This document shows, one piece after another, positions 2,029 to 20,904 of a DNA stretch of 40,414 nucleotides; within the stretch, counting starts at the first letter, position 1, and each line of letters opens with the position of its first letter. The stretch covers positions 1 to 40,414 of IMG/VR virus record IMGVR_UViG_2917398303_000004; one strand, 5' to 3'. This DNA is from a virus (lineage: Duplodnaviria > Heunggongvirae > Uroviricota > Caudoviricetes). A program made the translations under genes and the position numbers. The notes below the pieces were generated by a model. The model ran no database searches. It had not been told where the DNA came from and saw only the letters and a list, made by a program, of their open reading frames with translations.

Positions 2029-3645
2029 TTACCATTCAAGTAGATTTCTGTCGGCAAAATTTCTATTGAAACTCGCACCATCAATATCAATAAAATGACT
2101 TGTGGATGGGTTCTCTATATTCCCATTCGACATATTTCCAAGATAGTTAACGGTGTTTTTTGAATTCGAACCGATATGCAATGGTGAATTTACTTGTGAA
2201 TACTTATTGCTTTTATATAAAGCGAGTAAATCATTAACCTTCGAAGTATCAAGTATCTGAGTTTTCTCAATGCTCAAGTTAGAGGCAAAGTTAGTAAAAA
2301 CAAATGAATTATTTTGTATTGTAGGAATGGTAAATCCAATTGGTGTAACATGCGAGTTTTTAACAGAAACGCATTGATTTATATATGGAAGGTCTAAAAC
2401 TAAGGTTTGCGTATTTAGATTAGATAGCAGATGAATATCTGATCTAACTAATACAACCTCTGGGGCCTGATAAGTTATTCCTAACTCACAGTTGGCCTCA
2501 TAATAGTTACTATCAAGATTAAGTGACTTGCAATTTACAGCAACTATTGCAGCCTTTTTATTCCCCTCCATGTTATTATAATTAACATTTATACTTAATC
2601 CTGCAAGCGGTGACGATGGGGTAATGGTAACCGCTACTCCATTATTGGCGTAAAATTTATTTCTTTGAACGTTAACATTATTGGCAATCCCAGTTATTTT
2701 GATGCTATCGCCAAAATTAGAGAAAACGCGACACCCTGTTATATCGTTACTATAGCCACCAAGATCAATGGCATATCCAATTGTGTTTGTAACAATAATA
2801 TTATCAATTTTAGTGTGATTACTCTCAGGAAGTAAAACTCCTTCCGTTAATCCATTACCATTAATACTGAAATCACTTAGCTCCAAAAAAGCAATTTCAC
2901 CAGATTGCTGGGTTATAAACGGAGATCCAGCCTTTGCTGAAAATAATGATGATTGATATGGCCCCTGACCTTCAATTTTTACTAGTTTGTCTTTTATGGT
3001 AATCCCAGGATCAACGTTAAACCCTCCCGCTGGTATTATAAACTTTGTTGCGCCAGAAGCATCATCAATAGCTTTCTGGAATGCTGCTTTGTTCTGAGCC
3101 CCAGTATTCCCGACTTTAAATCCGTAGTCAGAAAGCGTTACCAAATCCACAGCGAATTTGTCAGATACCGACATCGAAACGCCATCATTAAACTTAGGTG
3201 TATATGTAACGATGTCAGAACCCTTAATGGGGTTGTCACTGATTAAGTCTCCCCTCAGTGTAGCATCGCCAACACTCAACCATGCACCTGGCCCTATACC
3301 GCCTGTAGACGCAGGTGTTGACCCAGGAGGAACTAACTTAGGTAACAGCCCATCCCATCTGTAATATTCGCCATCACCATCAGGGAGCTTCCAGCGTAAT
3401 GCCTGATCTGCACGAGTTAAATCTGCACCGTCCTGGAATGAATCCATCATCGTCCATCCCATGGAGGATAGTTTTTCCTGATAACGCTTTTCCATTCCAT
3501 GCCATGTCAGTCTGGTCTTACCAAATCTATCAGGACATGTCTCATTTGATTGATCGTTTGAAAGGTAATCGAAGTTCTGCGCATTATCATACAAATCTTT
3601 TGCGGCAGAAGACCCCAGCGGATTGCCGGTGTTATAAGTAGTCAT
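2029..3645 (-). CDS. Tail fibre / tailspike protein (beta-helix-like repeats)
   Basis: Start at MTTYNTGNPLG with GAGG Shine-Dalgarno 6 nt upstream; repetitive N/G/S-rich beta-strand-like sequence; last gene of tail operon. Confidence 0.65.
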   Translation of the reverse strand: MTTYNTGNPLGSSAAKDLYDNAQNFDYLSNDQSNETCPDRFGKTRLTWHGMEKRYQEKLSSMGWTMMDSFQDGADLTRADQALRWKLPDGDGEYYRWDGLLPKLVPPGSTPASTGGIGPGAWLSVGDATLRGDLISDNPIKGSDIVTYTPKFNDGVSMSVSDKFAVDLVTLSDYGFKVGNTGAQNKAAFQKAIDDASGATKFIIPAGGFNVDPGITIKDKLVKIEGQGPYQSSLFSAKAGSPFITQQSGEIAFLELSDFSINGNGLTEGVLLPESNHTKIDNIIVTNTIGYAIDLGGYSNDITGCRVFSNFGDSIKITGIANNVNVQRNKFYANNGVAVTITPSSPLAGLSINVNYNNMEGNKKAAIVAVNCKSLNLDSNYYEANCELGITYQAPEVVLVRSDIHLLSNLNTQTLVLDLPYINQCVSVKNSHVTPIGFTIPTIQNNSFVFTNFASNLSIEKTQILDTSKVNDLLALYKSNKYSQVNSPLHIGSNSKNTVNYLGNMSNGNIENPSTSHFIDIDGASFNRNFADRNLLEW

Positions 3646-3701
3646 ATGGACCTCATAAACGAAAAACCACCGAAGTGGGTTTGTTAAGATGTTGTTTGTG
3701 A

Positions 3702-6419
3702 TTAAGCTACATTGCCGGGGTAGGAGGCATTGTCGTATTGATAGAAGGAGTCGCGGTATTCTTTTGCTGTAACCTGACATGTTCCGTCAGACTGCGGTGA
3801 AATCTCTGAGATTAGTGCGCTGTAACCAACACGTGAAGATTCGCAGAATATAAGGCGTGGAGGTTCGATAGATTGATCATTCAGTATGATGCCGATGAAC
3901 TCATCCTGTTCAGACACCGATAATTCATAATCACTAACCTTAGTAACTGGAAGCAAACCAGACGCTGAGCCATCCTGATAGCGAATTAACGCGCGCGGAT
4001 TGTTGAATGTCCAGTCAAGTGGTTCTGATACAGCGATAGTTGTTACACCACCTACAGTTCTCATATGATCAATCAAAGTGCTGATTGTTTTGCTACCTGG
4101 AATGTCATCAGTAAAAACAATTCGGTCGCCTACGTTATAGCAAAGCGCGTCCATTTCCGTGGTCGTGGTATGGGTCAAACGCTGCTGCCTGTACTTCATC
4201 AGCCTTCGCATGCCTATCTGATAAGCTCTGTCCTGATCAAGCACGCCATCAAGCGTATAATCTTCAACTTTAACTGGAGTAGGATTACCCGATGTTCTGC
4301 ACTGAACCGTCTCTTCAGCCCACGTAGTGCCATTAATGTAAGTGACATCCACGCCATCATAATCATCGGCTGATGGTGCAACGAAGGCCGTTTGAAGCGC
4401 TTCTGTCATTTCCTGCGGGCTAATGATTCCCGTCCACGTTTTCACCCCCTCCCTTCCAACAGAAGCCATACCATCAGACAGCAGGAAATAGCTTTTACCT
4501 GCACTGGTGACTTTCTGAAACATTTCAAGAGCGGAAACTGAGTCTGTTGTTGCGTAATCGAAAAACTCGCTATCAGGCGTCCAGTAAGATGATTCCAGCA
4601 TATCAATCGCTTCGTTATCCATCGCAAGCCCCAGCTCATTTCCAATGTGGTATAGCGCACCTGAAATGCTCCTGGAAATACCGGAATCATAAATGCGTGT
4701 GGCGACTACGTTGACACGGCGATCGGACTGAGCGGCAAGCTTTCCACCCGTTTCGACTGAGACAGCCATAGTGGTTACACCAGAGTATGATGATGGTCTT
4801 GAAAGCAACCTCCCCCTCAATGACTGCCAGTACATGTTATCCCTGCTGTTATCCTGACCTTGTTCGTTCGTTCTCCTGCATCTAACCTCTACCAAACCGG
4901 CTGATGCCAACGTGATACGCTCAGTAAAACCTAACCCATTAATATTTTGCTGATTGTAAGATCCAGTTTTGCTGGTCCAGCCTGAACCAGAACCGTAAAC
5001 ACGGTATTGAATTTCCCACTGAACAATCCTGTTCTGCTTCCTGCCCTTCTTGTTATACCCACAAATACCGTTTGGGAAGAAGAAATTGACCTCAAACATA
5101 TCAACGACTTCATTATCTGGACATGTGAGAAACGGCCCCATCCATTTATTGTTCTGATTTAATCCGTTTGCTTCAAAATCAAGCACTGTACGCGGCGTGA
5201 AACCTGGCCATTCCGGGTCAACAGCACCCTCTACAACACGCTGTAAAGTAACGGTGCTGGCGTCGATTTCCAGAATTTTATATTCGCTGCCTGAGTGCGA
5301 TACTGATAAACGAATGTATCCTTCAGGAATACCAGTAAATGCTGTTCCGGTTGCGCTTTCATACGCCAGAGCGATTGACGCCGTAACAACGTCTTCATCA
5401 ACAGGTTCTGAATGGGGGATGTAATCAGCAATGAAAAGCTGGTAATCGATACTGTTGTACCAGAGAGTAACTGGCATACCGATGTATGGAGCAATCTCTT
5501 CCAGTGTGTCACTGGTTATTCTGCTGTATGCGCCATCATTGGTGACAACATAAGAATCTGGAACAATCAGTTCAACAATTGCACCTTCTGTCCATGAGTC
5601 AGGAAGGTCGTTTGTATCAGTATTTCCATCGTCAGTACTAAGGCCGTTAAAGGTGATATCTGCACCAGATACCGTTAATGAATCTGCTACAACATCCTGT
5701 GTATCCGGGGCTGTCTGCGCCATATCAAGACCAGAACCAGATGCCGTTCCGCCTACTTCTGTTGAGTTGAACCAGTTTTCCGTTCGCTGATCACCGATAA
5801 TGTTCTGTCCTGGCTGATATACATTATAGGTAAACCCATCACCAAGAGAGGCGATTGGCGTTGACCCAACGCGAATGTCGCCATCACCAAATGAAAAACG
5901 GCCCATACCCAGCACCACAAACATTTCAACCGTCATTACAGTCGGATCATCAGTTGAGAATCTTGTTACTGGTTGCACTGCATAATCTGGATAAATACGG
6001 CTGCGACCAAATAACTCGCGTATCGGATCACCCAATTTCGCGTTATTCGCTTTAGCAGGATTTACATCAAGTGGATTACCTGTTCCTGATGAATAACCAC
6101 CAAGATCACCAACACCAGGAGCAAAGAATAAAGCGTAAGCTACAGACGCAACTGATACGGCAACTGCAATCCAGGCGAGAGCTACAGCACCGTAAGGAAC
6201 AGGATAAATTCTGACGTCGCTATCCGGGCTGATTGCGAACTCAAACCACGCCTGAGATGGAATATTTTTCCCATCAACGTCAATTGTGATCGGCTGTTTA
6301 ATATCAGGCTTATAGCCCTCTACTTTTTTTGACAGCCATTGATGTATGGTTATAGCGCCATGTTCATGTGTTTCCAGCGGTTCGCCGGGGATGCGGGAGG
6401 GGTAAATTCGGATAGTCAC
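3702..6419 (-). CDS. Tail tip / host-specificity (central fibre, J-like) protein
   Basis: 905-aa protein immediately downstream of NlpC/P60 tail assembly gene and upstream of tail fibre; start overlaps upstream stop. Confidence 0.6.
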   Translation of the reverse strand: MTIRIYPSRIPGEPLETHEHGAITIHQWLSKKVEGYKPDIKQPITIDVDGKNIPSQAWFEFAISPDSDVRIYPVPYGAVALAWIAVAVSVASVAYALFFAPGVGDLGGYSSGTGNPLDVNPAKANNAKLGDPIRELFGRSRIYPDYAVQPVTRFSTDDPTVMTVEMFVVLGMGRFSFGDGDIRVGSTPIASLGDGFTYNVYQPGQNIIGDQRTENWFNSTEVGGTASGSGLDMAQTAPDTQDVVADSLTVSGADITFNGLSTDDGNTDTNDLPDSWTEGAIVELIVPDSYVVTNDGAYSRITSDTLEEIAPYIGMPVTLWYNSIDYQLFIADYIPHSEPVDEDVVTASIALAYESATGTAFTGIPEGYIRLSVSHSGSEYKILEIDASTVTLQRVVEGAVDPEWPGFTPRTVLDFEANGLNQNNKWMGPFLTCPDNEVVDMFEVNFFFPNGICGYNKKGRKQNRIVQWEIQYRVYGSGSGWTSKTGSYNQQNINGLGFTERITLASAGLVEVRCRRTNEQGQDNSRDNMYWQSLRGRLLSRPSSYSGVTTMAVSVETGGKLAAQSDRRVNVVATRIYDSGISRSISGALYHIGNELGLAMDNEAIDMLESSYWTPDSEFFDYATTDSVSALEMFQKVTSAGKSYFLLSDGMASVGREGVKTWTGIISPQEMTEALQTAFVAPSADDYDGVDVTYINGTTWAEETVQCRTSGNPTPVKVEDYTLDGVLDQDRAYQIGMRRLMKYRQQRLTHTTTTEMDALCYNVGDRIVFTDDIPGSKTISTLIDHMRTVGGVTTIAVSEPLDWTFNNPRALIRYQDGSASGLLPVTKVSDYELSVSEQDEFIGIILNDQSIEPPRLIFCESSRVGYSALISEISPQSDGTCQVTAKEYRDSFYQYDNASYPGNVA

Positions 6420-6805: not shown

Positions 6806-7300
6806 TTAACTCATGTAACGGAGGCCAGGATAATATGGAAGGGTGTAACGATGACGGGGCCAGGCAGTATCGAGGACATTCATATAGCCTGCCGTTATCT
6901 GCGCCTGCGTAGATGTCCACGAACCACTCTTAATAGCCAGAGTATAGGGAACTGAAGCGGGTGCACTAAGGTCGGTAGATACGTAGTTACGATAGGTTAA
7001 AGATGCCTCTGATAGGTTATCCAGCGCGTTACGAATCGCAGTAGAAGTAACTCCATCAATATTGTCGATAGCAAACTGTAAATCCTGTGTACCGTCACTA
7101 TTTCTGGCAGGAAGAGCAATATCGATAGCTGCTGACTGAAATGTCACTTCATCGCCATTTTCAGTGACAGCCGTGATATCTTCGAAGCCTTTGCACAAGT
7201 AATAAACTTCAGTTCCAATGTTTATTTGCAGTGTTTCGATAATCACCTCTTCACCAGAAGAGGCGTAAAGACGATTGAGAATAGTCATGGTCTTGGCCAC
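6806..7300 (-). CDS. Minor tail protein (L-like position)
   Basis: 164-aa ORF in tail operon between tape measure and NlpC/P60 gene. Confidence 0.45.
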   Translation of the reverse strand: MAKTMTILNRLYASSGEEVIIETLQINIGTEVYYLCKGFEDITAVTENGDEVTFQSAAIDIALPARNSDGTQDLQFAIDNIDGVTSTAIRNALDNLSEASLTYRNYVSTDLSAPASVPYTLAIKSGSWTSTQAQITAGYMNVLDTAWPRHRYTLPYYPGLRYMS

Positions 7301-7758
7301 TCCCTGTTAAGCGCAATATCAATGATGCTGCTGTTGATAATGTAATCGGGGAACTCTCCCCAACCAGGAGCAAGAGCAGGCCTTTCCCATAGCTCAAGCG
7401 TGGCAGTAAATCGCCAGTAATTACCGCCCTCGATGGTTGGACCCTCGTAGATGTCTACGAACCGGCATACATACACGTCGATAATGCCAAGTGGTGAGCG
7501 AAGTGGCATGTTGAACCAGTCAGCACCATCTTTGATGGTGTCTCTGTACCACGCTTCAAAGAGTTGAGCCTCCGGATCTGTAAACAACCATGCCACTGAT
7601 GCCTGAGTTGGCGTTGAAGTGTACAGACGGCGTTGTCTTGCCCTGCCTGATGTAAGTTCTGTTCTCAGCAATGGGCTAACAGGCTTTAACCCGAACCCTT
7701 CCTGCAATGGAATAGGCAGGTAATCATTCGGATAGTTAATGCTGGTAGTTTTAGCCAT
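7285..7758 (-). CDS. Minor tail protein (M-like position)
   Basis: 157-aa ORF starting at the stop of the tape measure gene. Confidence 0.45.
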   Translation of the reverse strand: MAKTTSINYPNDYLPIPLQEGFGLKPVSPLLRTELTSGRARQRRLYTSTPTQASVAWLFTDPEAQLFEAWYRDTIKDGADWFNMPLRSPLGIIDVYVCRFVDIYEGPTIEGGNYWRFTATLELWERPALAPGWGEFPDYIINSSIIDIALNREWPRP

Positions 7759-10283
7759 TAACCCGTTCTCCTGTTAGTGTTCCAGCGCATCATCGCTTTT
7801 GAAATGTTTCCCTTGCCCCTTGCCAGGTCACTTGCTGCCTGTTGATAACCAAGTTTTGCTCCTTCTGTAGTTGCTTGTTTCATCATGGCAATCTGAGTGT
7901 CGGAAGGGTCACCGTTAACATTCATGTTTATAACGGGTGAGAAACTAGCCCCCTGCGTGGACTGCTGATTCACCCTGTCGAGTGTTTCATCAAGCTTGGC
8001 AGAGGTCTGGGAAGTAACGACGCGCTCCCCTTTCTGAAGAAGCCAAGTCCCGGTTTCTGGAACGCTGTCGATACCATCGTGCGCCATACCTGCAAAGGCA
8101 GAAGTGCCAACGGCTGCTACAAGCGGTGCAGTTACCGCCGCCGCTGTTGCCATCGCTGCAGGCGCAAGCGCTGGACCAACGATAGGAATTGCCGCTGTAG
8201 ATGCATAAGCGGCGATCTGAGCCTGTAAAGATGAAGCCTGCGCGTTTGCCAGCATTGATGCCGCTGCGCTTGCCTGAGTTGATTTACCTACCAGCAATTG
8301 CACCGCCTGATATACCAGCCATTGCGCCGCCATATCAGAAAGGGTTTTAATAATTGTTTCACCAAGTCCAGAGAAAATATTACTGAAGAAATCACCTAAA
8401 TCCTCTGCCCCGTGCACAAGATCATTCAGGTTGTCAGAGATGGATTCCGTTGCGCCATTGAGAATGGAGGTCATCGCATCGGCGGCGGTCTGGTAGTAAT
8501 CAGCAGAGTTATCAGCGTAATCATTCAACGCATCCATAATGCCGCTTTGCCAGTCACCCATCTGTGCGTCGGACTTTTTGTAATAGTCCTGCTGAATATC
8601 GAGACGCTCATCAAGTGCCTGCTGTAACGCTGCCGTCTCCTGGTCATAAAGCGATTTACTGATATCGCCGCTTTGGTATTGCTTCTGGAGGTCTGCCTGT
8701 CTGTCGAGAAAACTACGCTGAATATCCAGCAATTCCTTCATGCGCTGGCGAGTCTTATCGCCCATGCCTGCGCCAATAAAATCAGAATCATTAGCTGCCT
8801 GGTCATTCTGATTTTGTTTGCGTAAATTAGCGGTGAATTCGACAAGTTTCAGGTTTTCTTCGTTGGCTTTTTTCAGAGAGTTGAGACGGTCTATTTCCGT
8901 AGCAAGCTGCTCAAGGCGCTCTTTCTGTGCTGCATTAATCCCTGTTAATTTTCCGGAAGTGAAATCAAAACGAAGCTTCTCAAGCTCGGTGACCTGCTGA
9001 TTCTTTTTGCCAGTTGTGTCAATTAACGCAATCTGGCGCTGATAGCTCATTTCCAGAGACTTAAACGCTGACTCCAGCTTCTTGGCCCCGGCGTCTGGTG
9101 ATACTTTTCCGTTTGTCTCTCCTGAACCTAAGGAATAGTTTTTGCTGGATGATGATGGCCCACCGATGGTGGCCGGACTGAGAGGAAGATTATTACCGGC
9201 TTTCATAATGGAAAGTTGGCGTTCGAGCTGTGCTATTTCAACTTTCTTCCCGTCAACGTCCATACCAACTCTGTTAAAACTGGCAAGGAAGCCCTGGTCT
9301 TCTACATCCGCTTTGAGGTTGTTGAGTCGACGCTCTATATCAGTTACAGATGCATTGTCACCAACAGCCTTACCGCCTTTGTACAGGTCAATCAACTTAC
9401 CTGCTTCAGCGCCAACTTTCACAAGCCAGGTAGCGAGGTCAACTACGCCGCCAACCAGGTCTGTTAGTCCCTGAATCACCTGAGGGTCTTTGAAAACATC
9501 GCCCATGTCAGTGATCGCATTCTGTATTCCTGACAGGTCAACATTGGCAAGACCGGTAGCAATCTCAATTTTTACGCCGTTTACCTGTGCCTCCATGTCC
9601 TCAAACAGGGAGTTTACTTTCACCAGTTTTTCGATGTCTGCATCATCAGGAGCGACACCAAACTGCTTTGCCGCGTCCATGTACTGACGAAGCTTTTCAC
9701 CACCCTGATCAAGTAAGGGCAGGAGCTTTGACAGGTCATTACCAAGGCTTTCGAGAATGGTTGTTTTTTCGGCGTTTGTTTTTATCTTGCCAAGAGCATC
9801 ACTGATAGCGAGAAGTTGTTTATCAGGTGACTCACCGGCTAATTTTTTAGCGGATAATCCCAGCGCATCAAGCGCACCGACAGCTTCACCAGATTTATTT
9901 AAGACCGCATCACCAATCTTATCGCCAATATCCTTAAAGATATCAGCCATCTGGTCACCAGATACCCCAGCCTTTTCGGCTGCATACTGCCAGGCCAGCA
10001 GAGACTGAGTAGACATATTGAGCGACTTAGCCCAACGGTCTGTTTCAGTGATCTGTTTGGAAGTGGTTTTCAGCAGGTTATAACCAGCAACGCCTACACC
10101 AATTGCTGCAGCGCTTGCTGCTGCCGCAAAAGCGGTGAACGCGGTAGCCGCAGCCTTGGCGTCGGATTGTACCTGTTTTCGCCATTTTTGAGATGCTCGT
10201 TCAGCCTGGCTTAGACCAGATACAAATCCACCAACCTTAGCTACCAGGTCAATGGTCAGCGTTCCTAGGGATTTACCAGCCAT
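7758..10283 (-). CDS. Tail tape measure protein
   Basis: 841 aa, Ala/Gln-rich coiled-coil composition, located after G/GT chaperone. Confidence 0.85.
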   Translation of the reverse strand: MAGKSLGTLTIDLVAKVGGFVSGLSQAERASQKWRKQVQSDAKAAATAFTAFAAAASAAAIGVGVAGYNLLKTTSKQITETDRWAKSLNMSTQSLLAWQYAAEKAGVSGDQMADIFKDIGDKIGDAVLNKSGEAVGALDALGLSAKKLAGESPDKQLLAISDALGKIKTNAEKTTILESLGNDLSKLLPLLDQGGEKLRQYMDAAKQFGVAPDDADIEKLVKVNSLFEDMEAQVNGVKIEIATGLANVDLSGIQNAITDMGDVFKDPQVIQGLTDLVGGVVDLATWLVKVGAEAGKLIDLYKGGKAVGDNASVTDIERRLNNLKADVEDQGFLASFNRVGMDVDGKKVEIAQLERQLSIMKAGNNLPLSPATIGGPSSSSKNYSLGSGETNGKVSPDAGAKKLESAFKSLEMSYQRQIALIDTTGKKNQQVTELEKLRFDFTSGKLTGINAAQKERLEQLATEIDRLNSLKKANEENLKLVEFTANLRKQNQNDQAANDSDFIGAGMGDKTRQRMKELLDIQRSFLDRQADLQKQYQSGDISKSLYDQETAALQQALDERLDIQQDYYKKSDAQMGDWQSGIMDALNDYADNSADYYQTAADAMTSILNGATESISDNLNDLVHGAEDLGDFFSNIFSGLGETIIKTLSDMAAQWLVYQAVQLLVGKSTQASAAASMLANAQASSLQAQIAAYASTAAIPIVGPALAPAAMATAAAVTAPLVAAVGTSAFAGMAHDGIDSVPETGTWLLQKGERVVTSQTSAKLDETLDRVNQQSTQGASFSPVINMNVNGDPSDTQIAMMKQATTEGAKLGYQQAASDLARGKGNISKAMMRWNTNRRTG

Positions 10284-10284
10284 G

Positions 10285-10928
10285 CTATGTCCACTCCTGC
10301 ATAGCCTGCTCCAGTGAAATGGAAGGCTCGTTAATGTGTGGTGTGAAGTCTGTTACTTTGAAGGAGGGGGAATCTTTTCCACGATTGACGTTAGCCAGCA
10401 CAGAAGAGATAAGGCCAGCGGCCCACTCAGTACGCATCATTCCGTTAAGGCTACCGTACTTTTGACGGTAAAGAACCCAGTCGCGATACTCTGTAACGCT
10501 AACGCGTTCTTTTGCTTCAGCAATGGTACGACCGCCGATCCCGTTGAGAACTAATTCACACCAGAATTCGTCTTCTGCGCTGAGTTCGCCTTTCCCAGGT
10601 CGTTAACCTGCTGAATAGCGACAAGCAGAGCAACGGTAAGAGCACCATCAAGTGCGCCGCGCTCAGGGTCTGCTTCACCAGTGATATCGGCGACAGTGAA
10701 AACAGGTGCACCATTTTCATCACAGATTGATGCAGCAATACGCCCTGCAACACCATCAATTTTTCCCACTGCTGAAAGAACATTTGATACCGCGTCGTGA
10801 TAACCCATTGGGCGGATATAAACGGTAGCTGTGATCTCCTTATCACCTTGCTTCCAGGTAATTTCCTTTTCAACAGGACGACCAGTGAACGCCCCTGCCT
10901 GTTTTAACGAATCCATATTCAGTTTCAT
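10285..10928 (-). CDS. Tail assembly chaperone G-T fusion produced by programmed -1 frameshift
   Basis: Own translation: -1 frame is open from the GGGAAAG site (10590-10596) to TAG at 10285-10287, ending 1 nt before the tape measure ATG. Confidence 0.6.
10551..10928 (-). CDS. Tail assembly chaperone (G-like)
   Basis: 125-aa ORF between major tail and tape measure genes; contains slippery heptamer near its 3' end. Confidence 0.7.
   Translation of the reverse strand: MKLNMDSLKQAGAFTGRPVEKEITWKQGDKEITATVYIRPMGYHDAVSNVLSAVGKIDGVAGRIAASICDENGAPVFTVADITGEADPERGALDGALTVALLVAIQQVNDLGKANSAQKTNSGVN
10590..10596 (-). other. Slippery heptamer G GGA AAG (programmed -1 ribosomal frameshift site)
   Basis: Exact X XXY YYZ heptamer, identical to the lambda G/GT slip site, in the zero frame of the chaperone. 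Confidence 0.6.
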
Positions 10929-10978
10929 TTCTTTCCTCTCAATTTGCGGGGTTTCCCCCGCTCATTAATGTCTGGTTA

Positions 10979-11476
10979 TTAGCTTGTTGGTTGGGCCTTT
11001 GGAACCCAAACCCCCTGTCCTGAACGCTGAATAGTTGCTGAGGTTTGTACGACCGTATTAGCCTGGAAGTCGAACGGGAAATCAGAAACATAGCCCTGGA
11101 ATACATACCAGGTACGCGTATCCGGTAAAGAAAGACCATCTACTGCATCTGGATCACCAGAAGTCGCTACCGTTGGTTCATCCGTTCCATCAGCCCAGCC
11201 AATAGCGAAGGTCAGGTTTGTTTGATCGCTTGATTCGGCAAGATTGCTCAGCATGACATGACTGGTGTTTGCCGGGTCTGCGTTAAGAGCTACCGTAGCC
11301 TGACCAGGTGTGCGCAGACCTTTTTTGTAGGAACGAGTACTGGTTTCACTCAGACAGGTATCTTCAATCTGATCTGCCGGGCTACTACCTGGTGAGAACG
11401 AAGTAATACATTCAACTTCACTGACCACACCGTTATTCAGAACGTACATCTGAGTGCCTTGAGTCACTACTGACAT
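10979..11476 (-). CDS. Major tail (tube) protein
   Basis: 165-aa ORF directly upstream of the chaperone pair; preceded by a terminator/attenuator hairpin. Confidence 0.6.
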
Positions 11477-11528: not shown

Positions 11529-11894
11529 TTATCGGTTGACTATCCAGTCAACGTCGAAAGAATATCGATACCTGAGCGTCTCAGGGTCTCGCGTCTGATT
11601 ATCCCAGCGAACAATGTTGGCTTTTACCTCAATCGCATTACGCATGGCTTTAGCGACCGCAATAGCCTCATCAGGGGTATCGGCATAGATATCAACCTGA
11701 AGCGAATACATGTCCGCATCTGGTCGTTGGTTAAGGAAATTTTCAGGAGAGCCGCTGATGTTCTGCCAGACGGCGTATGGATAAACAACGTTATCGTCCT
11801 GAATACCGAAAGGGTAAATTCTTACCGGATTGCTTCCGAGTAGAGCAGTGACTTCAGGACTCGACGCGCAAACAGGAAAAATAGGAGCAATCAT
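11529..11894 (-). CDS. Tail completion / neck protein (hypothetical)
   Basis: 121-aa ORF in head-tail joining gene block. Confidence 0.4.
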
Positions 11895-12376
11895 GCCGTC
11901 TCTCCTTTCTTCTGTGCTCGTTTGATAGCTCGGTCAATCCCCGCTTCGTAGTTAACAGAGAAGGTGTTGAAAACCTCTATCAGCCTGGAATTTGCAGCAG
12001 CACGAACGAGCGGTTTTGCTGCCATCTTTTCAGTGCCAAACTCAAGAAGGCGCCAGTGAGGAGTGGGTGCATCTTTCGCAGTGCTTGGATGCTTTTTTAA
12101 TACGGCTCCCTGAAGAATTCCTATCCTGAAGGCAAGATCACCGGTTTGTTTAAACATACGACCATTCCAGCGCATCGCAGCGTTATCAGCAATGCTACGT
12201 GCGGTGTGAGGATCGTCGATCCGCTCTGCGTTTCTCTTTATCTGAGTTACGATAACGTTTCCCGCCTTCCTCAGTGCGGAGCGCCCTGTTTTGCGCTTAG
12301 TTTCCGTGGTAATGGCTTCTAACTTACCAAGCAGTGAATCTACACCTTCAAGCTTAAACTCAATGCTGTCAGCCAT
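11891..12376 (-). CDS. HK97 gp10-like head-tail joining protein
   Basis: 161-aa ORF, position and composition consistent with the HK97 gp10 family; overlapping stop/start. Confidence 0.5.
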   Translation of the reverse strand: MADSIEFKLEGVDSLLGKLEAITTETKRKTGRSALRKAGNVIVTQIKRNAERIDDPHTARSIADNAAMRWNGRMFKQTGDLAFRIGILQGAVLKKHPSTAKDAPTPHWRLLEFGTEKMAAKPLVRAAANSRLIEVFNTFSVNYEAGIDRAIKRAQKKGETA

Positions 12377-12701
12377 CCTTCACCCCCTCTGAGCACGGAA
12401 GCGTGAGATATTCAAGTCCACTATCAGGATCAGGAAGAATCCCCTCAATGCTGTAGATTTTGCCACGGAAAAGAATACGGTCTTTCTCCTGGATATCTTC
12501 CCGGTATCGGATAGTGATTCTGGCCGTTACTTTTACGTTTGATGCCTGGGCTGTAATGAAATCCCTGACCGAAGAGGCAACCACGCTACCCCACACCTCT
12601 GCAAGGTCATTCCAGGTGTATTCCATTGCACCAGTAGTAGGTGACTGTATAGTCGTTCTCCGCTGGATTGTGATGCGGTGGCGCAGTTTTGCAAATTCCA
12701 A
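12369..12701 (-). CDS. Head-tail adaptor / head closure protein
   Basis: 110-aa ORF with features of the phage head-tail joining family; operon position. Confidence 0.5.
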   Translation of the reverse strand: MEFAKLRHRITIQRRTTIQSPTTGAMEYTWNDLAEVWGSVVASSVRDFITAQASNVKVTARITIRYREDIQEKDRILFRGKIYSIEGILPDPDSGLEYLTLPCSEGVKDG

Positions 12702-12703
12702 AA

Positions 12704-12904
12704 TTACCTCGGCTTGCCATCAAGATAGGTTTGCGGTGGCAAATCATCGTCAATTTCATCAACGAGCGTTTTTGCAATCAGAGATACCAGCGTTTCATCA
12801 GCCTGAGCCAGGCGATTTATCGCTTCTGCCTGTTTGAGTTGAGACGCCGCCAGTGCCTTCAGCGCTACCGTTAATTCGTTTACCTGCTGCTCGTTCATAG
12901 GCAA
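12704..12904 (-). CDS. Hypothetical small virion-module protein
   Basis: 66-aa ORF tightly packed between head-tail genes. Confidence 0.35.
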   Translation of the reverse strand: MPMNEQQVNELTVALKALAASQLKQAEAINRLAQADETLVSLIAKTLVDEIDDDLPPQTYLDGKPR

Positions 12905-12969
12905 TCCTCGTCCACTTTTTTATCCACTCGCGCCGTTTGACGCATCCTGCGCATGCCATACCCGCCCCC

Positions 12970-13296
12970 TTAAAGAATTGTCGGCTTACGGAGGTCGTAA
13001 ATCAGCATTGAAACAGAAAATGGAAGTTCACCTTGTTTCAGCTTCTCTTCCTCTTCGCCGCCACGATTACGGTCAAGATAGCCAAGCAGAACCAACAGGG
13101 CTGTCTGAACGCGAGTAAGCGGCTCACCATCGATAAGTTTTCCAGTGTCATCAACGATCAGTGACCTGCTTCCCTGGATGTAAGAAAGGATTGCTGCACT
13201 TCCACCCTGTATTTTTAAGGTCAGGTCCAAATCACCGTAATCATCATCGATACGGAGATGAATTTTTGCCTCTTCGAGCGTCACCAGTTCAATCAT
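12970..13296 (-). CDS. Head-tail connector protein (gp6-like)
   Basis: N-terminal LEEAKxHLRIDDD motif typical of gp6-like connectors. Confidence 0.6.
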   Translation of the reverse strand: MIELVTLEEAKIHLRIDDDYGDLDLTLKIQGGSAAILSYIQGSRSLIVDDTGKLIDGEPLTRVQTALLVLLGYLDRNRGGEEEEKLKQGELPFSVSMLIYDLRKPTIL

Positions 13297-14177
13297 GGCT
13301 TATCCCTCAGGTCTCGACCTTTCTTAACAGCAAGTGTCCATCCCTTAGAGCCCGTTTCACCTGGTTTGTCGGTAGTAGGTTCGCTGCAGTGCCACATAGA
13401 GCCGCCCCATGTAACAGTGTCGCCAGGCTGATACTCTGTACCGGCTTTAAACACATCACGATAAATAGTTACCGGGATGTCAAAGGACTTAACTTCAACT
13501 GCTCCACTTGCTCTTTCCAGTGAGATTGAGAAGGTTCGCTGTTTATCCTGTTTGATATCGACGTTCGACACGCCATCAACGATGCATTCCCAGCCTCGCA
13601 TGCCGTGCGTCTTTTCATGAGAGCGCCAAAGACCGCCGTTGTGTGTTGCGTAAGTTCCGCGAGGGTAACTTTTCGTCTCGTCAATGAATGGTTCTAGCTC
13701 GATTGATAAAGCATCTTTACCATCGCTGCCAGGCTCAGGAACTTGAATGTTCGCGGCCACATCTTCAGCCAGTTTTTCAACATCTACCGGCTCTGGAAGT
13801 GATGCTGATACAACCTCTTCAACCAGAGAGCGAAGGTCTTCTGCACTGACGCTTTTACCATCCTTAGGCTTGGGTAGTGATTCTAAAGCCTGCTTCACCG
13901 CACTTTCGGCTGCGTCGTCAATGATCTGGCTAAAGTCGGGTAGTTCTGGTGATTTTGGCAACTCAATAGCGCTTACCGCTTCCGCAACCATTTTGGATAC
14001 ATCAGGAATTTCTACAGGTTGAACTTCAGGGATTGATCCCCTCAGTTCTTCAAGTTGCTTTTCCAGATTACTGGCTGTTTTCTCCAGCGCTTGATGAAAG
14101 TCATCTGCCATTTTTTGAATGGCTGTTCCAAACTCTTCACCAAGCGCCTTTATCAGGGATAATTCACGTTCATTCAT
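13293..14177 (-). CDS. Hypothetical head-module protein with coiled-coil N-terminus
   Basis: 294-aa ORF between portal and connector genes; acidic coiled-coil N-terminal half. Confidence 0.4.
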   Translation of the reverse strand: MNERELSLIKALGEEFGTAIQKMADDFHQALEKTASNLEKQLEELRGSIPEVQPVEIPDVSKMVAEAVSAIELPKSPELPDFSQIIDDAAESAVKQALESLPKPKDGKSVSAEDLRSLVEEVVSASLPEPVDVEKLAEDVAANIQVPEPGSDGKDALSIELEPFIDETKSYPRGTYATHNGGLWRSHEKTHGMRGWECIVDGVSNVDIKQDKQRTFSISLERASGAVEVKSFDIPVTIYRDVFKAGTEYQPGDTVTWGGSMWHCSEPTTDKPGETGSKGWTLAVKKGRDLRDKP

Positions 14178-15526
14178 TTTGTTAATAATCCTCTGAGCAT
14201 TGATTTCGCCGCGAAAAGTTCTGTCTCGGTTAATGCTTTTCCACCTTCGTCTACTGGCTCTGGCGATGGCTGCGTCTGTTGCGTCCCTTTCGCGAATGGG
14301 TCTTCTGATGCATCGCGCTTGGCCAGAGCTGCCAGGCTGTAGTTCTGCTGCTGCAGGAAGAGAGAATCACCACCTTCAACAGGAGGAAGGTTTTCACTTT
14401 TACGGGCTTCGTTTGGAGTAAGAATGGTGCTTTTGACGCCATCACCCAACGCTTTCATTCTGCGTTCGCTGTCCATGCGTAATAGTGCGCCGATATCAAG
14501 TTCAACCCGCTTTTTTACACCAAGATCGAAAGCTTCTTTCAGAAGAGACTCGATAGATTCAATCAGCACCTGCAGGCACTGTGAGTAATATTGTTGCTCA
14601 AGCGCTTCAACGTTGTCAGAACTGGGTATTTCTCCTACGCCAGCTTTATATGCCGGGACGTGGAAAGCTGAGCAAACCATTTCAGCAGAGAGTTTCTGCT
14701 GCTCAACAGTCTGTGCATCGACAGCTGACATGGTGATCGCTTTGTATTCTGCGCCGCCTGATAGCAGTCCAGTTTTCCCAGCATTTTCTCCGGTGTAACC
14801 TGTATCCCACCCTGCTTTAATTTCTCTCGCTTTAACTTCATCAATTGAGCCAGGAACAGTGATAACACCGCTTGGTTTACCTCCATTTTTAAAGAAGAAT
14901 GCAGAGCTTTCCTGAATGTGCTTCCCCTGCATTGCGGCGAGTCCGCAGGCGTAGATGGGAGAAATGCCAATAAGAGGATGAAATAGGCAATTAAAGCGAT
15001 CGTGAATGATTTCGCGTGCAGGTACGGTTACTTGTGCCGGGAGACCACTAATCTGGTCAGGACTGATTTGGTAAAAGACAGACCCGTCATCAGCGACCAA
15101 AGGGATGACTTTATCCGGATCAAGAATGCGAAGCTCTGTAATTTTCCCGGTATTATTTTTTACCTTCATCACGTAGGTGTTACCGCGTGAAAGTTTAGAA
15201 TTCATCCACGTTTCAAAGAACTGAATTGTGTTCTGAAACTGGTTAGGTTTGCTGATTAGTTTATCGAAATTGTCATCCGCAACTTCTTTCCAGATGCCAT
15301 TAGAATCTTTGGCCTGAATGGATGGCGACATCTTTGAAATGTCACTGGCAATCAGGGTTATGCAGGAAAACACCGCATAATAGGAAAGTACGGTTTCATT
15401 CCTGATTTCCATGTTTCTTTGCCAGGCGCCTGCGAAAGGTTCTCTGACAAAGGAAAATATTGGAGTCCAGCCGCGAGATGATGGTTGCTGTAGTGCTTTC
15501 TCTTTCCGTCTAAAAGGATTCCACAT
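14174..15526 (-). CDS. Portal protein (HK97 family)
   Basis: 450 aa with NGGKPSGV...GENAGKTGLLSGGAEYK region typical of the Phage_portal family. Confidence 0.7.
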   Translation of the reverse strand: MWNPFRRKEKALQQPSSRGWTPIFSFVREPFAGAWQRNMEIRNETVLSYYAVFSCITLIASDISKMSPSIQAKDSNGIWKEVADDNFDKLISKPNQFQNTIQFFETWMNSKLSRGNTYVMKVKNNTGKITELRILDPDKVIPLVADDGSVFYQISPDQISGLPAQVTVPAREIIHDRFNCLFHPLIGISPIYACGLAAMQGKHIQESSAFFFKNGGKPSGVITVPGSIDEVKAREIKAGWDTGYTGENAGKTGLLSGGAEYKAITMSAVDAQTVEQQKLSAEMVCSAFHVPAYKAGVGEIPSSDNVEALEQQYYSQCLQVLIESIESLLKEAFDLGVKKRVELDIGALLRMDSERRMKALGDGVKSTILTPNEARKSENLPPVEGGDSLFLQQQNYSLAALAKRDASEDPFAKGTQQTQPSPEPVDEGGKALTETELFAAKSMLRGLLTK

Positions 15527-15696
15527 CAGCCATTCTCCGCGTTAACTTTTTTCTTTTTCGGTCCGCCAGCTTTTTTGCCAGTCAAATATTCAGCTTTATG
15601 CAGCAGAACCAGCACCTTTGCGCACTGGTCATTCACATTTTTCTCATCACCTGGCAATGAGTCATGTGTACGCTGTAGGTATCTGATCTTTGCCAT
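15526..15696 (-). CDS. Small Lys-rich ORF (56 aa) translationally coupled to portal gene
   Basis: Own translation; TGATG stop/start overlap with portal ATG; below the ORF-track size cutoff. Confidence 0.3.
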   Translation of the reverse strand: MAKIRYLQRTHDSLPGDEKNVNDQCAKVLVLLHKAEYLTGKKAGGPKKKKVNAENG

Positions 15697-15728
15697 ATGA
15701 AATGGCGGGGTTTCCCCCGCCCTCCTTC

Positions 15729-17375
15729 TTAGCTGGTAGCGCCAGTGCTGTAATCAACGCCGGAGATAACAGCTACTGCTGCATCGCGACGGCGTTTCCA
15801 GTTAATCCAGCGCTCTGCACGAATGGCCACGCTGTTGGTCTGGAACATGGATACCAGTTCCACTGCCGTTGGTGTGGTGCTGTCATGGGTCGGAGTACTC
15901 TGCATTTCCAGAGAAGCTTCGCGAGACATATCAACGGCGACACCGCCGTCATCAGCCAGGTACACATCCGGCGCGTTAACCAATACCAACTGATTGCCAA
16001 CGTACTGGGAGACAATTACTGGCAGACCCTGGAATGTACCGCCCAGCATGGTCATGTCAGGATACTCTTTCTGGCCCAGGGCATTTTTACGCATTGAGAG
16101 AGTGAGAGCCGTAGTACTGGACATCAGCCATACCGCGCCATTCGGCTGCAGGTTATTGGTAATAAATTGACCAAATGCTGCTGCAGCATCGGTATCCGGA
16201 TCGCCAGTAGACGGAATCGCAGTAATGCCGTTGGTAATAGATGCAGGGGAAACATCAGCCACTGCCGCTTTTGCCGGGTCGATGAAGTCGGTATCCAGCC
16301 GCGCGATCACCGCTTCAGCCAGGGCGTTACGCACCAGAGCATCAGCAGATGGATTTGAGAAACGGATCAACTCTTCGGTCAGTACTGCAATAGAAGCCAC
16401 CTTGGAGAAACCGAAGGTGATGGTTGCGAAGTCAAACTTGGTCAGAGGCTTGGCTTTACCCTGACCAACCCAGTTAGCAGAACCTCCGGAGGTCTGCGCC
16501 GGAATTCGAACATTGAACGGAACCTGACGCAGGGACGGGATGTTACCCTGGCCAAAACGTCCGATAATGGTCTGAGGACGCAGAAACTCAACGAAATCCT
16601 GCGCGTAATCCTGATATTCAACCAGTGCACCAGCCCAGGCAGGGTCTGTGGTAGTGCCAGCACTTACCGCAGCTTTCAGAACGTGATGAAGTTTGGTGTC
16701 ATCAGGATACTGGTTTTTCGCAATCTGTAGCGCTTCGGAGCGGCTACCGTTACCAGCTGCCAGAGACTTGGCAAAACGGGCAAAGGCAATACCTTTTTCC
16801 AGCTTAGGCTCTACACGGATGATGGATGGTGCGTTATTCACCACTGTAACTTCACCAGATGCTGCTTTAGTTACTGGCTTGGCGGTTGATGCCATGCTGG
16901 TTTCCATATCACGCAGGCGTTTAAGGTGCTCGTCGACCGCTTTGATTTCAGTAGAGGTGTTGTCGTAGCTTTCTGTTTCTTCCGCATCCAGCGTGCGGCC
17001 TTCATCGGCGGCTTTGCTCATGATGTCGTTCAGTGAAGAGGCCAGCGCTGCACGCTTGTTTTCAAAACTTTTGATCTGTTCAGCGATATTCATCGTTGAT
17101 TTTCCTTTTTGAGAAGATTTATTCGGTGCTGAAGCGCCAGCAGAATTTATGGTTTTCACTACCGGTTTCTCAGTGCCGAGCGCGGCGAGTAACTGGCGGT
17201 CAAACGATTTAACGGTTTGAATCGAACACTCGGCATTCGCCGGGATCGTTACTGCAGAGACTTCAAGAAGCTCCCATTCAAGAAAATGGATGCCACCAGA
17301 GCCGAGATATGCGTATTTAATTGGCTTGAAGCCGATAGAAAGGCCTTTCACAGACCTGATTTGATCGATGCCCAC
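15729..17375 (-). CDS. Major capsid protein (HK97 fold) with N-terminal scaffold-like delta region and the C-terminal part of an S78 prohead protease domain
   Basis: GLSIGF protease Ser motif at N-terminus, coiled-coil segment, then capsid-fold core; in a different frame from the protease N-terminal ORF. Confidence 0.75.
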   Translation of the reverse strand: MGIDQIRSVKGLSIGFKPIKYAYLGSGGIHFLEWELLEVSAVTIPANAECSIQTVKSFDRQLLAALGTEKPVVKTINSAGASAPNKSSQKGKSTMNIAEQIKSFENKRAALASSLNDIMSKAADEGRTLDAEETESYDNTSTEIKAVDEHLKRLRDMETSMASTAKPVTKAASGEVTVVNNAPSIIRVEPKLEKGIAFARFAKSLAAGNGSRSEALQIAKNQYPDDTKLHHVLKAAVSAGTTTDPAWAGALVEYQDYAQDFVEFLRPQTIIGRFGQGNIPSLRQVPFNVRIPAQTSGGSANWVGQGKAKPLTKFDFATITFGFSKVASIAVLTEELIRFSNPSADALVRNALAEAVIARLDTDFIDPAKAAVADVSPASITNGITAIPSTGDPDTDAAAAFGQFITNNLQPNGAVWLMSSTTALTLSMRKNALGQKEYPDMTMLGGTFQGLPVIVSQYVGNQLVLVNAPDVYLADDGGVAVDMSREASLEMQSTPTHDSTTPTAVELVSMFQTNSVAIRAERWINWKRRRDAAVAVISGVDYSTGATS

Positions 17376-17665
17376 GCTTCTTCAAGCCTAGCCACAAGTT
17401 GCGATGGCATGTCAGGTGTTGGCTTAACAAGTTGCGCCGTGATCTGAAGCCCTTCATTCACTTTCTTTGCAGAACAGTTCCCAATAGGTTGGGTTCTGTC
17501 GTGCTGCCAGAGAAAAGGGTTTTCACTGCCGAACTTCGCACCGTCTGGGTCCATAATGTCGCCGTCACGGTCAGGTGATGGTGTGGAAGCAATCCCGGTG
17601 ATTATCCGTTTGTCCTCATCCACCGCTTTCACCGTCATGATCGTACATGCGCGGTCAAGCTTCAT
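17348..17665 (-). CDS. Prohead protease (S78/U35 family) N-terminal portion, frame-broken from the downstream ORF
   Basis: Contains the WQHD catalytic His region; the Ser motif lies in the overlapping ORF 15729-17375. Confidence 0.55.
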   Translation of the reverse strand: MKLDRACTIMTVKAVDEDKRIITGIASTPSPDRDGDIMDPDGAKFGSENPFLWQHDRTQPIGNCSAKKVNEGLQITAQLVKPTPDMPSQLVARLEEAWASIKSGL

Positions 17666-17723
17666 TTACTGTCCTCCAGAAACGAAAAAAACCGCCGCTG
17701 CGGGTTATTAACTGACGTGTTAT

Positions 17724-17996
17724 TTATATAAAAAAAACCTGGTAATCTTTCTTCTTCGCTTCAGGATTAAGTGCCATTAGCGAAACGGCATTAAACAGGG
17801 CCATAAGGGGGTCAATTTTCCCCTTTCCGCTGGCCTGTTTGGTGATGAGGATAGCGTTACCTTTTGGCTCTACTCTGGCGTTGCCTACACACCAGGCCAT
17901 TAATGGCTGTCCACCATGAATAAGCACCTCCCTCTGCAAGCTTGCGCTCTGTTGTCTTAATCGCACCACCAAGTCTCCAGCCCTGGCTGACACCAA
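17724..17996 (-). CDS. Terminase large subunit C-terminal fragment (alternative frame)
   Basis: HGGQPLMAWCVGNARVEPKGNAIL...GKIDPLMA resembles terminase large subunit C-termini. Confidence 0.5.
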   Translation of the reverse strand: MVSARAGDLVVRLRQQSASLQREVLIHGGQPLMAWCVGNARVEPKGNAILITKQASGKGKIDPLMALFNAVSLMALNPEAKKKDYQVFFI

Positions 17997-19383
17997 CCAC
18001 TGAATCTTCAGGTATTTCAGCTTCTACAAGAGCATCAAGAATCTGACCGACACCAGAAGGGTCAATGCCAATTTTATCCAGCAGTTCCGCATCATTAATA
18101 CGGCTGACATATTCAGCGACTTCCTCCGTGTCCTGTCCTACTCGTTTTACGATAGTGAGGTCACCGGCCTTAACGAAATCGTTGAACCTGGATTCCTCGC
18201 TTTTGCGGCGGCGCACAGCTATTTCATGCGCCCAGGCATGGCCCCAGCCAATCCACTCACGGGTTTCTTTGTCACGACCAATAATGTAAAGACCAAGAAG
18301 GTCATCAAGGCCACCACCATCTATCCCAACCGTAGCAACCTCAGCTCTCTGAAGGATATCGCTGAATGTTACCTGCCTAATTTGCGGCTCCCAGAAATCA
18401 ACGCCTGCCCATCGGTCACTGCGGAGGTTCAGACCAATTTCGATATTGAGGTGTTTCGCAAGGAACTGCTGTAATGTGCCGTCTGTTTTGTTCTGGTTCT
18501 TCAGAAGCTGATCGGCAATCCATTCTTCACTTACCGAACGTCCAATATTTGGATTGGTGATGTAGAAATTTTTTGGTTCAAGGTAAGCCTTACTTTCCAC
18601 CATAGAGTCAGGGAATTCATACAGGACGCCGAGTGTTTTAAGGTCATTAATCTTTCCATCTCGCACAGCACGCCAGTAATCAAGGCGTTCTTTGAATACA
18701 CCAGCAGGTGGTTCATCACTTTGTGTAGTCAGGAATATAACCCAGCCTTCGTTGCGAGATACCTGACCACCAAGTGCTTCCATAAACATGGCTTCGGCAT
18801 TAGCTCGCTTGCCAAACAACCAAAGCTCATCAACCAGAATGCGCCCTGACTTTTTACCTGAAACAGTATCGGTGTCAGCTGCTACTACTTTGAGTGTATT
18901 TCGCGTTACTCGGTGTGTGATGGTGCGGATATGGTCCTGAATCTGGAACATATCAGACAGCTCATCATCGGCGCGTATCATCCCGGCAGCAGGTTTAAAA
19001 CTGTTATCTGCAACCTCTTTTGTCGGCGCGAGAATCAGGTGCTCTTCATCTTCACGCCAGCACAGGATTAGCGCGGTCAGCATAATCCCTGCAGCGATGG
19101 TCGATTTTGTGTTCTTTTTCGAGATAAGTAGTCCATATTCGCGGATTAACTGCTTACCAGTCTCTGCTTCATAGCCACCGAAGATGGCATTTACAAAGTC
19201 AAATACCCATTCCTCTGAGCACTCACCAAATGTTGGCTTCCCTGGTAAATCAGAGACGCGTAACTCTTTGAAGATTCCAAGTGCCTGTTCTGCCTGGTCT
19301 GGGAAAATTGGTGGTGGGATGATTGATTGCTTTGCAACCAGAAGAGATTCCCATTCAGGGCAAGCCGTGGTCCATTGAGCCAT
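17857..19383 (-). CDS. Terminase large subunit (frame-disrupted near its 3' end)
   Basis: ATPase and nuclease-like regions; C-terminal terminase sequence continues in ORF 17724-17996 in another frame. Confidence 0.8.
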   Translation of the reverse strand: MAQWTTACPEWESLLVAKQSIIPPPIFPDQAEQALGIFKELRVSDLPGKPTFGECSEEWVFDFVNAIFGGYEAETGKQLIREYGLLISKKNTKSTIAAGIMLTALILCWREDEEHLILAPTKEVADNSFKPAAGMIRADDELSDMFQIQDHIRTITHRVTRNTLKVVAADTDTVSGKKSGRILVDELWLFGKRANAEAMFMEALGGQVSRNEGWVIFLTTQSDEPPAGVFKERLDYWRAVRDGKINDLKTLGVLYEFPDSMVESKAYLEPKNFYITNPNIGRSVSEEWIADQLLKNQNKTDGTLQQFLAKHLNIEIGLNLRSDRWAGVDFWEPQIRQVTFSDILQRAEVATVGIDGGGLDDLLGLYIIGRDKETREWIGWGHAWAHEIAVRRRKSEESRFNDFVKAGDLTIVKRVGQDTEEVAEYVSRINDAELLDKIGIDPSGVGQILDALVEAEIPEDSVVGVSQGWRLGGAIKTTERKLAEGGAYSWWTAINGLVCRQRQSRAKR

Positions 19384-19386
19384 TGA

Positions 19387-19923
19387 TTACCCCTTGTTAT
19401 TAACAACAAGTTTCGGCGGTGCCATTGCCCCAAACTTGCTACCCGTAGCTGCGACCTTCGCGGCGGCATGTCTCGCATCCTTTTTACCGCCTTCTCCTTT
19501 TTTGGGGTGAAGGTATGGCAGCATTGCTTTTGCGGCGTCTTTTCTGACATCTGTCTCTTCTGATACGTCGTTCATCACTGCTTTCAGGAACTCAAGCGGA
19601 TCATCAAATTCCTTCACCGTTCTGTTAACAACTTTTGGCAGTTCATCTGGTTCAGAAACAGCCTGCTCGACAATGACTTCGGCCCCACGTTTTTTACTGA
19701 TAAACGCGATGATATCCGGGTCTTTTGCCAGCCGGGAACCCTGAGACCTCGCGGTTTTCTCGGAGTAACCGGCCTTTCGGGCTGCTTCAGCCTGGGATGA
19801 ACCGGACATCAGCGCTTGTGCGAATTTGCGCTTTTGTCCTGTTAACACGTCAACATCCTCCAAAGGGGAAAATTTTCTGCGCATGAGAGGGGGCGCGGTG
19901 TCCAGCGCGATCGGCGTTGACAC
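19387..19923 (-). CDS. Terminase small subunit
   Basis: 178-aa ORF with helix-turn-helix-like AEAARKAGYSEKTA segment, immediately upstream of terminase large subunit. Confidence 0.7.
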   Translation of the reverse strand: MSTPIALDTAPPLMRRKFSPLEDVDVLTGQKRKFAQALMSGSSQAEAARKAGYSEKTARSQGSRLAKDPDIIAFISKKRGAEVIVEQAVSEPDELPKVVNRTVKEFDDPLEFLKAVMNDVSEETDVRKDAAKAMLPYLHPKKGEGGKKDARHAAAKVAATGSKFGAMAPPKLVVNNKG

Positions 19924-20318: not shown

Positions 20319-20904
20319 GTAACCTCCATGCTCTACGTCTTTCTGTTCTTGGCTGATTGTCTCTGGCTGGTTCCACTGGCTGTCCGTCAGCGTGGTCAAC
20401 GAGCGAATAGCATGGATAGACAACAGGACCACCGTAAGCATCGCCTACTGCATAGTCTGCTGCTTTGCCGTGATTCCATTTATCCAGAACTCGCTTGATA
20501 TGCTGATGCGGTACGCTGTAGCAGACGCCATGGATCAGGCGTGGAAGTGTGATGTAATCCGTTCTGCTCTTATCTGCTGCGATTAGCTTTGATGCTATAT
20601 CGAGTTGATATTGTGGAGGACGACCAGTACCGAGATAGAAAGAAACCAGCGCATCAGGGAAGCGCTCAATCCACTCAGCGAGTTTGTTGGTGAACCCATC
20701 AACTGGAATTGCATCGTCTTCTAAAATGACCACTCGGCAAGACTGCTCTTCTGCCCATTCAAGAGCACGGCGGTGATTCCAGTTAGCACCGTTATCTCCC
20801 GTGTCGATAAGCAGTAATGCACCTATCGACTCTGCCAGAATTAATGCTTTTTTGTGGCGCAAATGGTGACCAACAACCACAAACTTTACTTGTGCCTCCA
20901 CCAT
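20311..20904 (-). CDS. Hypothetical protein, possible GT-A-like nucleotide-sugar transferase
   Basis: 197 aa; beta-strand/helix start KFVVVGHH and acidic VVILEDD segment suggest a DxD-type fold; overlaps both neighbours. Confidence 0.4.
   Translation of the reverse strand: MVEAQVKFVVVGHHLRHKKALILAESIGALLLIDTGDNGANWNHRRALEWAEEQSCRVVILEDDAIPVDGFTNKLAEWIERFPDALVSFYLGTGRPPQYQLDIASKLIAADKSRTDYITLPRLIHGVCYSVPHQHIKRVLDKWNHGKAADYAVGDAYGGPVVYPCYSLVDHADGQPVEPARDNQPRTERRRAWRLHV

Follow-up and report, generated by a model that had tools for sequence, protein, structure and literature searches.

The prophage analysed here, a window of 40,414 nucleotides (positions 1 to 40,414 of IMG/VR record IMGVR_UViG_2917398303_000004, Caudoviricetes), most probably carries a lambda-type pair of tail chaperone genes, G and T, with a predicted programmed -1 frameshift on the slippery heptamer G GGA AAG; the probability of this reading is estimated at roughly 0.93. 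It is carried by the anatomy of the sequence, by the protein families to which the products belong and by the conservation of the signal in evolution, all of which are observed directly. The site is a standard, already described recoding site: frameshifting at lambda G/GT and its conservation in long-tailed phages have been reviewed, and G_GGA_AAG is listed as highly shift-prone in Escherichia coli (PMC5009743). The primary work on lambda gpG/gpGT is that of Levin, Hendrix and Casjens (1993) and of Xu, Hendrix and Duda (2004, 2013, 2014; all cited in PMC5009743).

G, T and the neighbouring genes form part of a morphogenesis operon and all lie on the minus strand, which the first-pass annotation of the locus had left unstated although its coordinates all hold on that strand. 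Gene G (10928..10551, minus strand), delineated from its ORF and translation, encodes the zero-frame product, a tail assembly chaperone of 125 amino acids; its ATG is preceded by GAGAGGA, and its translation ends in ...QQVNDLGKANSAQKTNSGVN followed by the stop codon. The plus strand reads CTTTCCC at positions 10590-10596, which corresponds to GGGAAAG on the minus strand (10596..10590), and the exact lambda-type heptamer reported there at first pass is indeed present in the chaperone gene in the X XXY YYZ register, its phase in G being CTG GGA AAG (Leu111-Gly112-Lys113). Twelve sense codons separate the AAG of the heptamer from the stop of G; the first-pass annotation had rightly placed the heptamer near that stop but had counted about 13 codons. 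The nearest -1-frame stop on the 5′ side (10605..10603) is found two codons before the heptamer, and a productive shift is therefore possible only within the G/T overlap, which is bounded by that stop and the stop of G (10551..10602, minus strand; ~17 codons).

The -1 frame had been described as open for about 100 codons and as ending one nucleotide before the tape measure gene, and both statements are borne out. The T segment (10285..10596, minus strand) comprises 103 codons from the GGG at 10596 to the TAG at 10287..10285; its translation is GKGELSAEDEFWCELVLNGIGGRTIAEAKERVSVTEYRDWVLYRQKYGSLNGMMRTEWAAGLISSVLANVNRGKDSPSFKVTDFTPHINEPSISLEQAMQEWT followed by the stop codon, and GELSAEDEFWCELVLNGIGGR is one of its peptides. 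This frame contains no ATG, GTG or TTG until the ATG at 10440, 52 codons past the slip site. The TAG is separated by a single spacer base (10284) from the ATG of the tape measure gene (10283..10281), the junction being TAGCATGG. The predicted G-T fusion (10285..10928, minus strand) would consist of 214 amino acids, namely residues 1-113 of G and 101 residues of the -1 frame, joined as ...VNDLGK|GELSAEDEFW....

Comparison of both frames with the gpG and gpT families assigns G to a family of tail assembly chaperones and T to the lambda-type minor tail protein T. The zero-frame product matches the Pfam family Phage_TAC_13 (PF16459; E 7.8e-35) and phrog_1749, 'tail assembly chaperone' (E 4e-46), and the T segment matches Phage_tail_T (PF06223; 40.8 bits, with the cut-off at 25.9; E 3e-10) and phrog_337 (E 3e-24). 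Upstream of G lies the gene for the lambda-like major tail tube protein (10979..11476, minus strand; 165 amino acids; Phage_TTP_11, PF16460, E 3.8e-66), and downstream of T the gene for the tape measure protein (7758..10283, minus strand; 841 amino acids; phrog_2854, E 6.5e-281; Pfam Tape_meas_lam_C). The gene order is thus tail tube, G, T and tape measure, and the tail chaperone fusion proposed at first pass combines a PF16459 zero frame with a PF06223 -1 frame at this location. When the fusion was compared by sequence with solved structures, nothing meaningful emerged, the best match being an exosome subunit with an E-value of 0.08.

A bare count of the heptamer was dropped as evidence, given that GGGAAAG occurs 6 times on both strands of the window against 5.2 expected, which equals the chance expectation. 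The placement of the heptamer, unlike its count, is non-random. The 42 long ORFs of the window (11,004 codons) contain 42 in-frame X XXY YYZ heptamers, or 0.0038 per codon, and the chance that any such heptamer falls within the 17-codon overlap is ~6%. Among these 42 in-frame heptamers, the slip site of G is the sole GGGAAAG and alone is followed by a long -1 frame, of 103 codons as against 37 for the next longest. A second in-frame heptamer of G, G GGA AAA at 10767..10761 (minus strand; codons 54-56), was rejected as a candidate: the -1 frame stops after 3 codons, and the motif is confined to the closest group of the window and absent from phage HK022 and the other representatives compared below.

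Relatives of the locus were collected from IMG/VR (80 loci) and from GTDB genomes (42 loci), and the G and T halves were placed by tblastn. The hosts of these relatives include Citrobacter, Buttiauxella, Enterobacter, Atlantibacter, Erwinia, Pseudomonas, Stenotrophomonas, Marinobacter and Halomonas. In each of the 121 loci that yielded both halves, T is read in the -1 frame with respect to G, and the in-frame heptamer of the overlap is GGGAAAG in 119 and GGGAAAA in the other 2; many of these loci are closely related, such that 121 does not stand for as many independent events, and the conservation also holds in 32 representatives that span several orders. Amino acid identity across the 121 loci falls to 48% for G and to ~40% for T. 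The description of the arrangement at first pass as a conserved recoding architecture of long-tailed phages is in line with these data and with the identical heptamer in HK022 and lambda. Among the relatives, G carries a zero-frame tail of anything from 3 to 55 codons past the slip site, and the tail lengths form discrete classes (3, 12, 29-30 and 48 codons, up to 55). The comparison indicates that the tail of G is dispensable and that the slip site is not.

A near-identity search of phage records yielded no match, and a search in distant mode recovered HK022-like phages, Klebsiella phages and Pseudomonas D3-like phages; the region is also present in five E. coli chromosomes at 96-98% identity. 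A T-only match (residues 116-213, 53% identity) was obtained in a metagenome-assembled genome of Prevotella sp. (Bacteroidota; locus L124, 1501..1794). This host is far removed from the otherwise gammaproteobacterial hosts, and either contamination or a transferred module is possible.

A direct homologue is gp13/gp14 of Escherichia phage HK022 (AF069308; Shamshuipovirus, Hendrixvirinae), with 80.5% amino acid identity in G, 61% in T and 74.8% nucleotide identity over 382 bases. Genes for the major tail subunit, G, T and the tape measure follow one another in HK022 as they do in the window, and CTG GGA AAG is identical at the homologous codon, after which the -1 frame of HK022 continues as DFELSAEDEFWCELVLNGIGGRTIAEA...; gp13/gp14 are annotated as a joined CDS that is 'presumed to be expressed as ... 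a translational frameshift product'. The T parts of the two differ by ~6 residues in length, and G extends 48 codons past the slip site in HK022 (161 amino acids) compared with 12 codons in the window (125 amino acids).

The gpG/gpGT pair of lambda is located between the tube and tape measure genes. Towards its 3′ end, lambda G has the heptamer GGGAAAG in a register identical to that of the window, and the -1-frame T of lambda ends at the tape measure gene. The distance from the slip site to the stop of G is 5 codons in lambda and 12 in the window. T of lambda and T of the window belong to the same Pfam family, PF06223, with weak pairwise similarity (BLASTP E 0.028, 32% over 38 amino acids; lengths of 144 and 101 amino acids, respectively). 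G of the window belongs to PF16459, a chaperone family different from that of lambda G, and pairwise similarity between the two is absent (E 4.4). The probable homology to lambda accordingly rests on profiles and synteny.

Conservation at the nucleotide level was analysed in 102 unique heptamer-anchored segments and in the 32 representatives, which are less than 85% identical to each other. Positions 0-5 of the heptamer carry 2.0 bits, that is, are invariant, and position 6 carries 1.8 bits; the invariant positions include synonymous third positions of the Leu and Gly codons, in comparison to 0.1-1.1 bits at the third positions nearby. Invariance of this kind is limited to the heptamer, which shows selection at the nucleotide level, beyond the needs of coding. 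In the G frame, upstream of the heptamer, the three codon positions have a mean information of 1.28/1.49/0.45, and in the T frame, on the downstream side, one of 1.29/1.41/0.62; in other words, the least-conserved (wobble) position is displaced by one base at the heptamer. A strongly conserved -1-frame peptide, ELSAEDEFWCELVLNGIGGRTIAEA, starts directly after the Gly-Lys of the heptamer, with the consensus E-L-x-x-E-D-E-x-W-C/H-E-L-V-L/M-N-G-I-G-G-R-T-I-A-E-A across the relatives; the T-frame translation served as the basis of the downstream alignment, which is hence biased towards the T frame, but the conservation of the peptide is unmistakable nonetheless.

This peptide bears directly on the possibility that T is a separate small gene that is translated, without recoding, from its own ATG at 10440 into a protein of 51 amino acids. 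Such an ATG exists, and in the 96-98% identical E. coli prophages T is annotated by PGAP as an ORF of its own, a 51-aa 'phage tail assembly protein T' (WP_003833939.1; locus L001, 3086..3241, in E. coli NZ_CP136025.1, and likewise in four further E. coli genomes). However, the most conserved part of T, the peptide described above, lies upstream of this ATG, extending from the heptamer onwards with codon-phase conservation in the -1 frame, and the match to the Pfam T domain begins at residue 33 of the -1 segment, ahead of the Met encoded by the ATG at 10440, which is residue 53. Moreover, the sequence that precedes the ATG, tacggtagccttaacgga, contains no clear Shine-Dalgarno (SD) motif, and the first candidate start of T in the relatives is found anywhere from 11 to 61 codons after the heptamer, with no conservation of its position. 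Judging from these alignments, independent initiation could not produce the conserved N-terminal part of T, and expression of T from its own start is a very unlikely explanation of the locus.

The same fusion would also be obtained by another route, namely transcriptional slippage of RNA polymerase or a ribosomal shift elsewhere in the overlap. Transcriptional slippage generally needs longer homopolymer runs than the GGG followed by AAA at this locus. The G GGA AAG at 10596..10590 is the sole X XXY YYZ heptamer within the 17-codon overlap, and the restriction of nucleotide invariance to the heptamer argues against a shift at any other site of the overlap. Either of these routes appears extremely improbable in comparison with a ribosomal shift on the conserved heptamer. 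The notion that the frame break between G and T is an artefact or a pseudogene, that is, one G-T gene split by a sequencing error or an inactivating indel, can be effectively dismissed: although two private single-base indels break other genes of the window and make errors or decay plausible in general, the same -1 relation and heptamer recur in all of the 121 loci over several bacterial orders, as well as in HK022 and lambda, and the G-T proteins are 100% identical to those of several IMG/VR contigs.

The two indels affect the head genes of the prophage. The large terminase gene (17724..19383, minus strand) is split into a 508-aa ORF with the ATPase domain (17857..19383, minus strand) and a 90-aa ORF in another frame with the end of the nuclease domain, the cause being an insertion of one base near 17927 by comparison with an E. 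coli prophage of 97.8% identity, which has a single 552-aa ORF. Similarly, the gene for a fusion of prohead protease and major capsid protein (15729..17665, minus strand) is split into ORFs of 105 and 548 amino acids, the larger at 15729..17375, by a one-base deletion near 17351 (CACAAG to CACAG) compared with the intact 645-aa gene of that E. coli prophage. Neither indel site occurs in IMG/VR in its window version, and the intact versions of both are found in IMG/VR contigs whose G-T is 100% identical to that of the window. The private indels are either sequence errors in the window or the mark of a recently inactivated or defective prophage copy, and neither explanation affects the conclusion on G/T. 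With sequence errors the phage would likely be functional, and with genuine breaks the prophage would probably be defective and G/GT a relic in it.

The head genes are arranged in the order small terminase (19387..19923), large terminase, protease-capsid fusion, portal (14174..15526), a 294-aa protein with a CBM_5_12 carbohydrate-binding motif (13293..14177) and head-tail connector, all on the minus strand (the segment from the small terminase to the 294-aa protein is 13293..19923). The location of the portal gene after the capsid gene is unusual compared with the common portal-protease-capsid order, and is shared by a close E. coli relative; another close relative, L001, carries a different head module, which indicates mosaicism. 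The connector and completion genes (11529..13296, minus strand) lie between the gene for the 294-aa protein and the tube gene and are followed by the block of tube, G/T and tape measure genes (7758..11476, minus strand), a DUF1833 protein (6806..7300, minus strand), a J-like protein (3702..6419, minus strand) and a beta-helix tailspike (2029..3780, minus strand). The tailspike gene is adjoined by an acyltransferase gene (Acyl_transf_3; 330..1439, plus strand), and a glycosyltransferase-family-2-like gene (20886..22343, minus strand), the Pfam score of which is below the cut-off and which is so annotated in a relative, is located upstream of the HNH and terminase genes; these two genes and the tailspike have possible functions in surface polysaccharides (lysogenic conversion). 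A tRNA-Arg gene (anticodon TCT; 34575..34653, plus strand) is found in the early/regulatory region.

Under the programmed frameshift reading, the occurrence of slippage, its efficiency and the functions of the proteins are inferred from lambda. Most ribosomes would read G (10928..10551) to its stop and yield the 125-aa chaperone, whereas a minority would undergo a tandem slip of one base backwards on G GGA AAG, in which the P-site tRNA-Gly, paired with GGA, and the A-site tRNA-Lys(UUU), paired with AAG, would re-pair with GGG AAA. The shifted ribosomes would then continue in the -1 frame to the TAG at 10285 and produce the 214-aa G-T fusion. If the lambda values apply, a few per cent of the ribosomes would slip, with G-T at ~1:30 relative to G. 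By analogy with lambda, many copies of G and few copies of G-T, the latter attached through their G part, would coat the tape measure protein, and the T domain would recruit the tail tube protein, upon which the tube would polymerise around the tape measure; G and G-T would both be absent from the finished virion and tail. In lambda, the ratio of G to G-T is ~30:1 and both proteins are needed for tail assembly (PMC5009743, PMC3296357), and the gpG:gpGT ratio depends on the modification (thiolation) of U34 of tRNA-Lys(UUU) (PMC3296357).

A downstream stimulatory structure, for which the first-pass annotation had suggested a search, is supported neither by folding of the single sequence nor by folds of individual relatives or a consensus fold. 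Folds of the 90 and 45 nt that follow the heptamer show no advantage over shuffled sequences (z +0.66 and +0.27, respectively); in the relatives, z-values of the downstream folds mostly stay within -1 to +1, the few outliers coming from GC-rich hosts, and the RNAalifold consensus of 18 diverse relatives amounts to -0.36 kcal/mol, with 2 pairs and no covariation. A structure-stimulated -1 frameshift of the dnaX or retroviral type, with a hairpin or pseudoknot 5-9 nt past the heptamer, was rejected as unsupported. Given the lack of a stimulatory RNA structure, a low frameshift efficiency is to be expected. The lambda G/GT site, as reportedly described by Levin et al. in 1993, is likewise of low efficiency and independent of simple downstream structure, and the lack of such structure in the window fits that account.

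In E. coli dnaX (tau/gamma), the heptamer A AAA AAG is preceded by an SD-like element and followed by a hairpin. What the G/T site shares with dnaX is an X XXA AAG heptamer on which bacterial ribosomes, decoding with tRNA-Lys(UUU), would shift by -1. In many of the relatives an SD-like GAGGT, a candidate stimulator, is present at -14..-10, that is, 9-10 nt 5′ of the heptamer, which is a dnaX-like spacing. The G/T site differs from dnaX in that no downstream hairpin is supported, in that the predicted shift product is an extension and not a truncation, and, in the window, in the degradation of the upstream element to GCAGGT (10600..10613, minus strand), for which pairing with the anti-SD sequence amounts to -4.6 kcal/mol compared with up to -15.7 kcal/mol for GAGGT of the relatives. 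The GAGGT motif doubles as codons for a conserved Glu-Val, and its Glu codon is GAG in 18 and GAA in 10 among the 32 representatives, with no clear bias. Tuning of the G:GT ratio in this chaperone family by an upstream dnaX-like SD-like (G)GAGGT, rather than by downstream structure, is a speculative and rather unlikely proposition; if it held, the GCAGGT lineage of the window would shift less often.

The understanding of tail assembly or of recoding is unchanged by the G/T site, which nevertheless provides a clean comparative example: the heptamer is invariant, the zero-frame tail ranges over 3-55 codons and RNA structure is lacking. The site matters mainly for annotation: automated pipelines, in this case PGAP in the five E. 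coli genomes, miss the 214-aa G-T fusion, together with 52 conserved T codons, and the proteome of this prophage family comes out correctly once the site is recognised.
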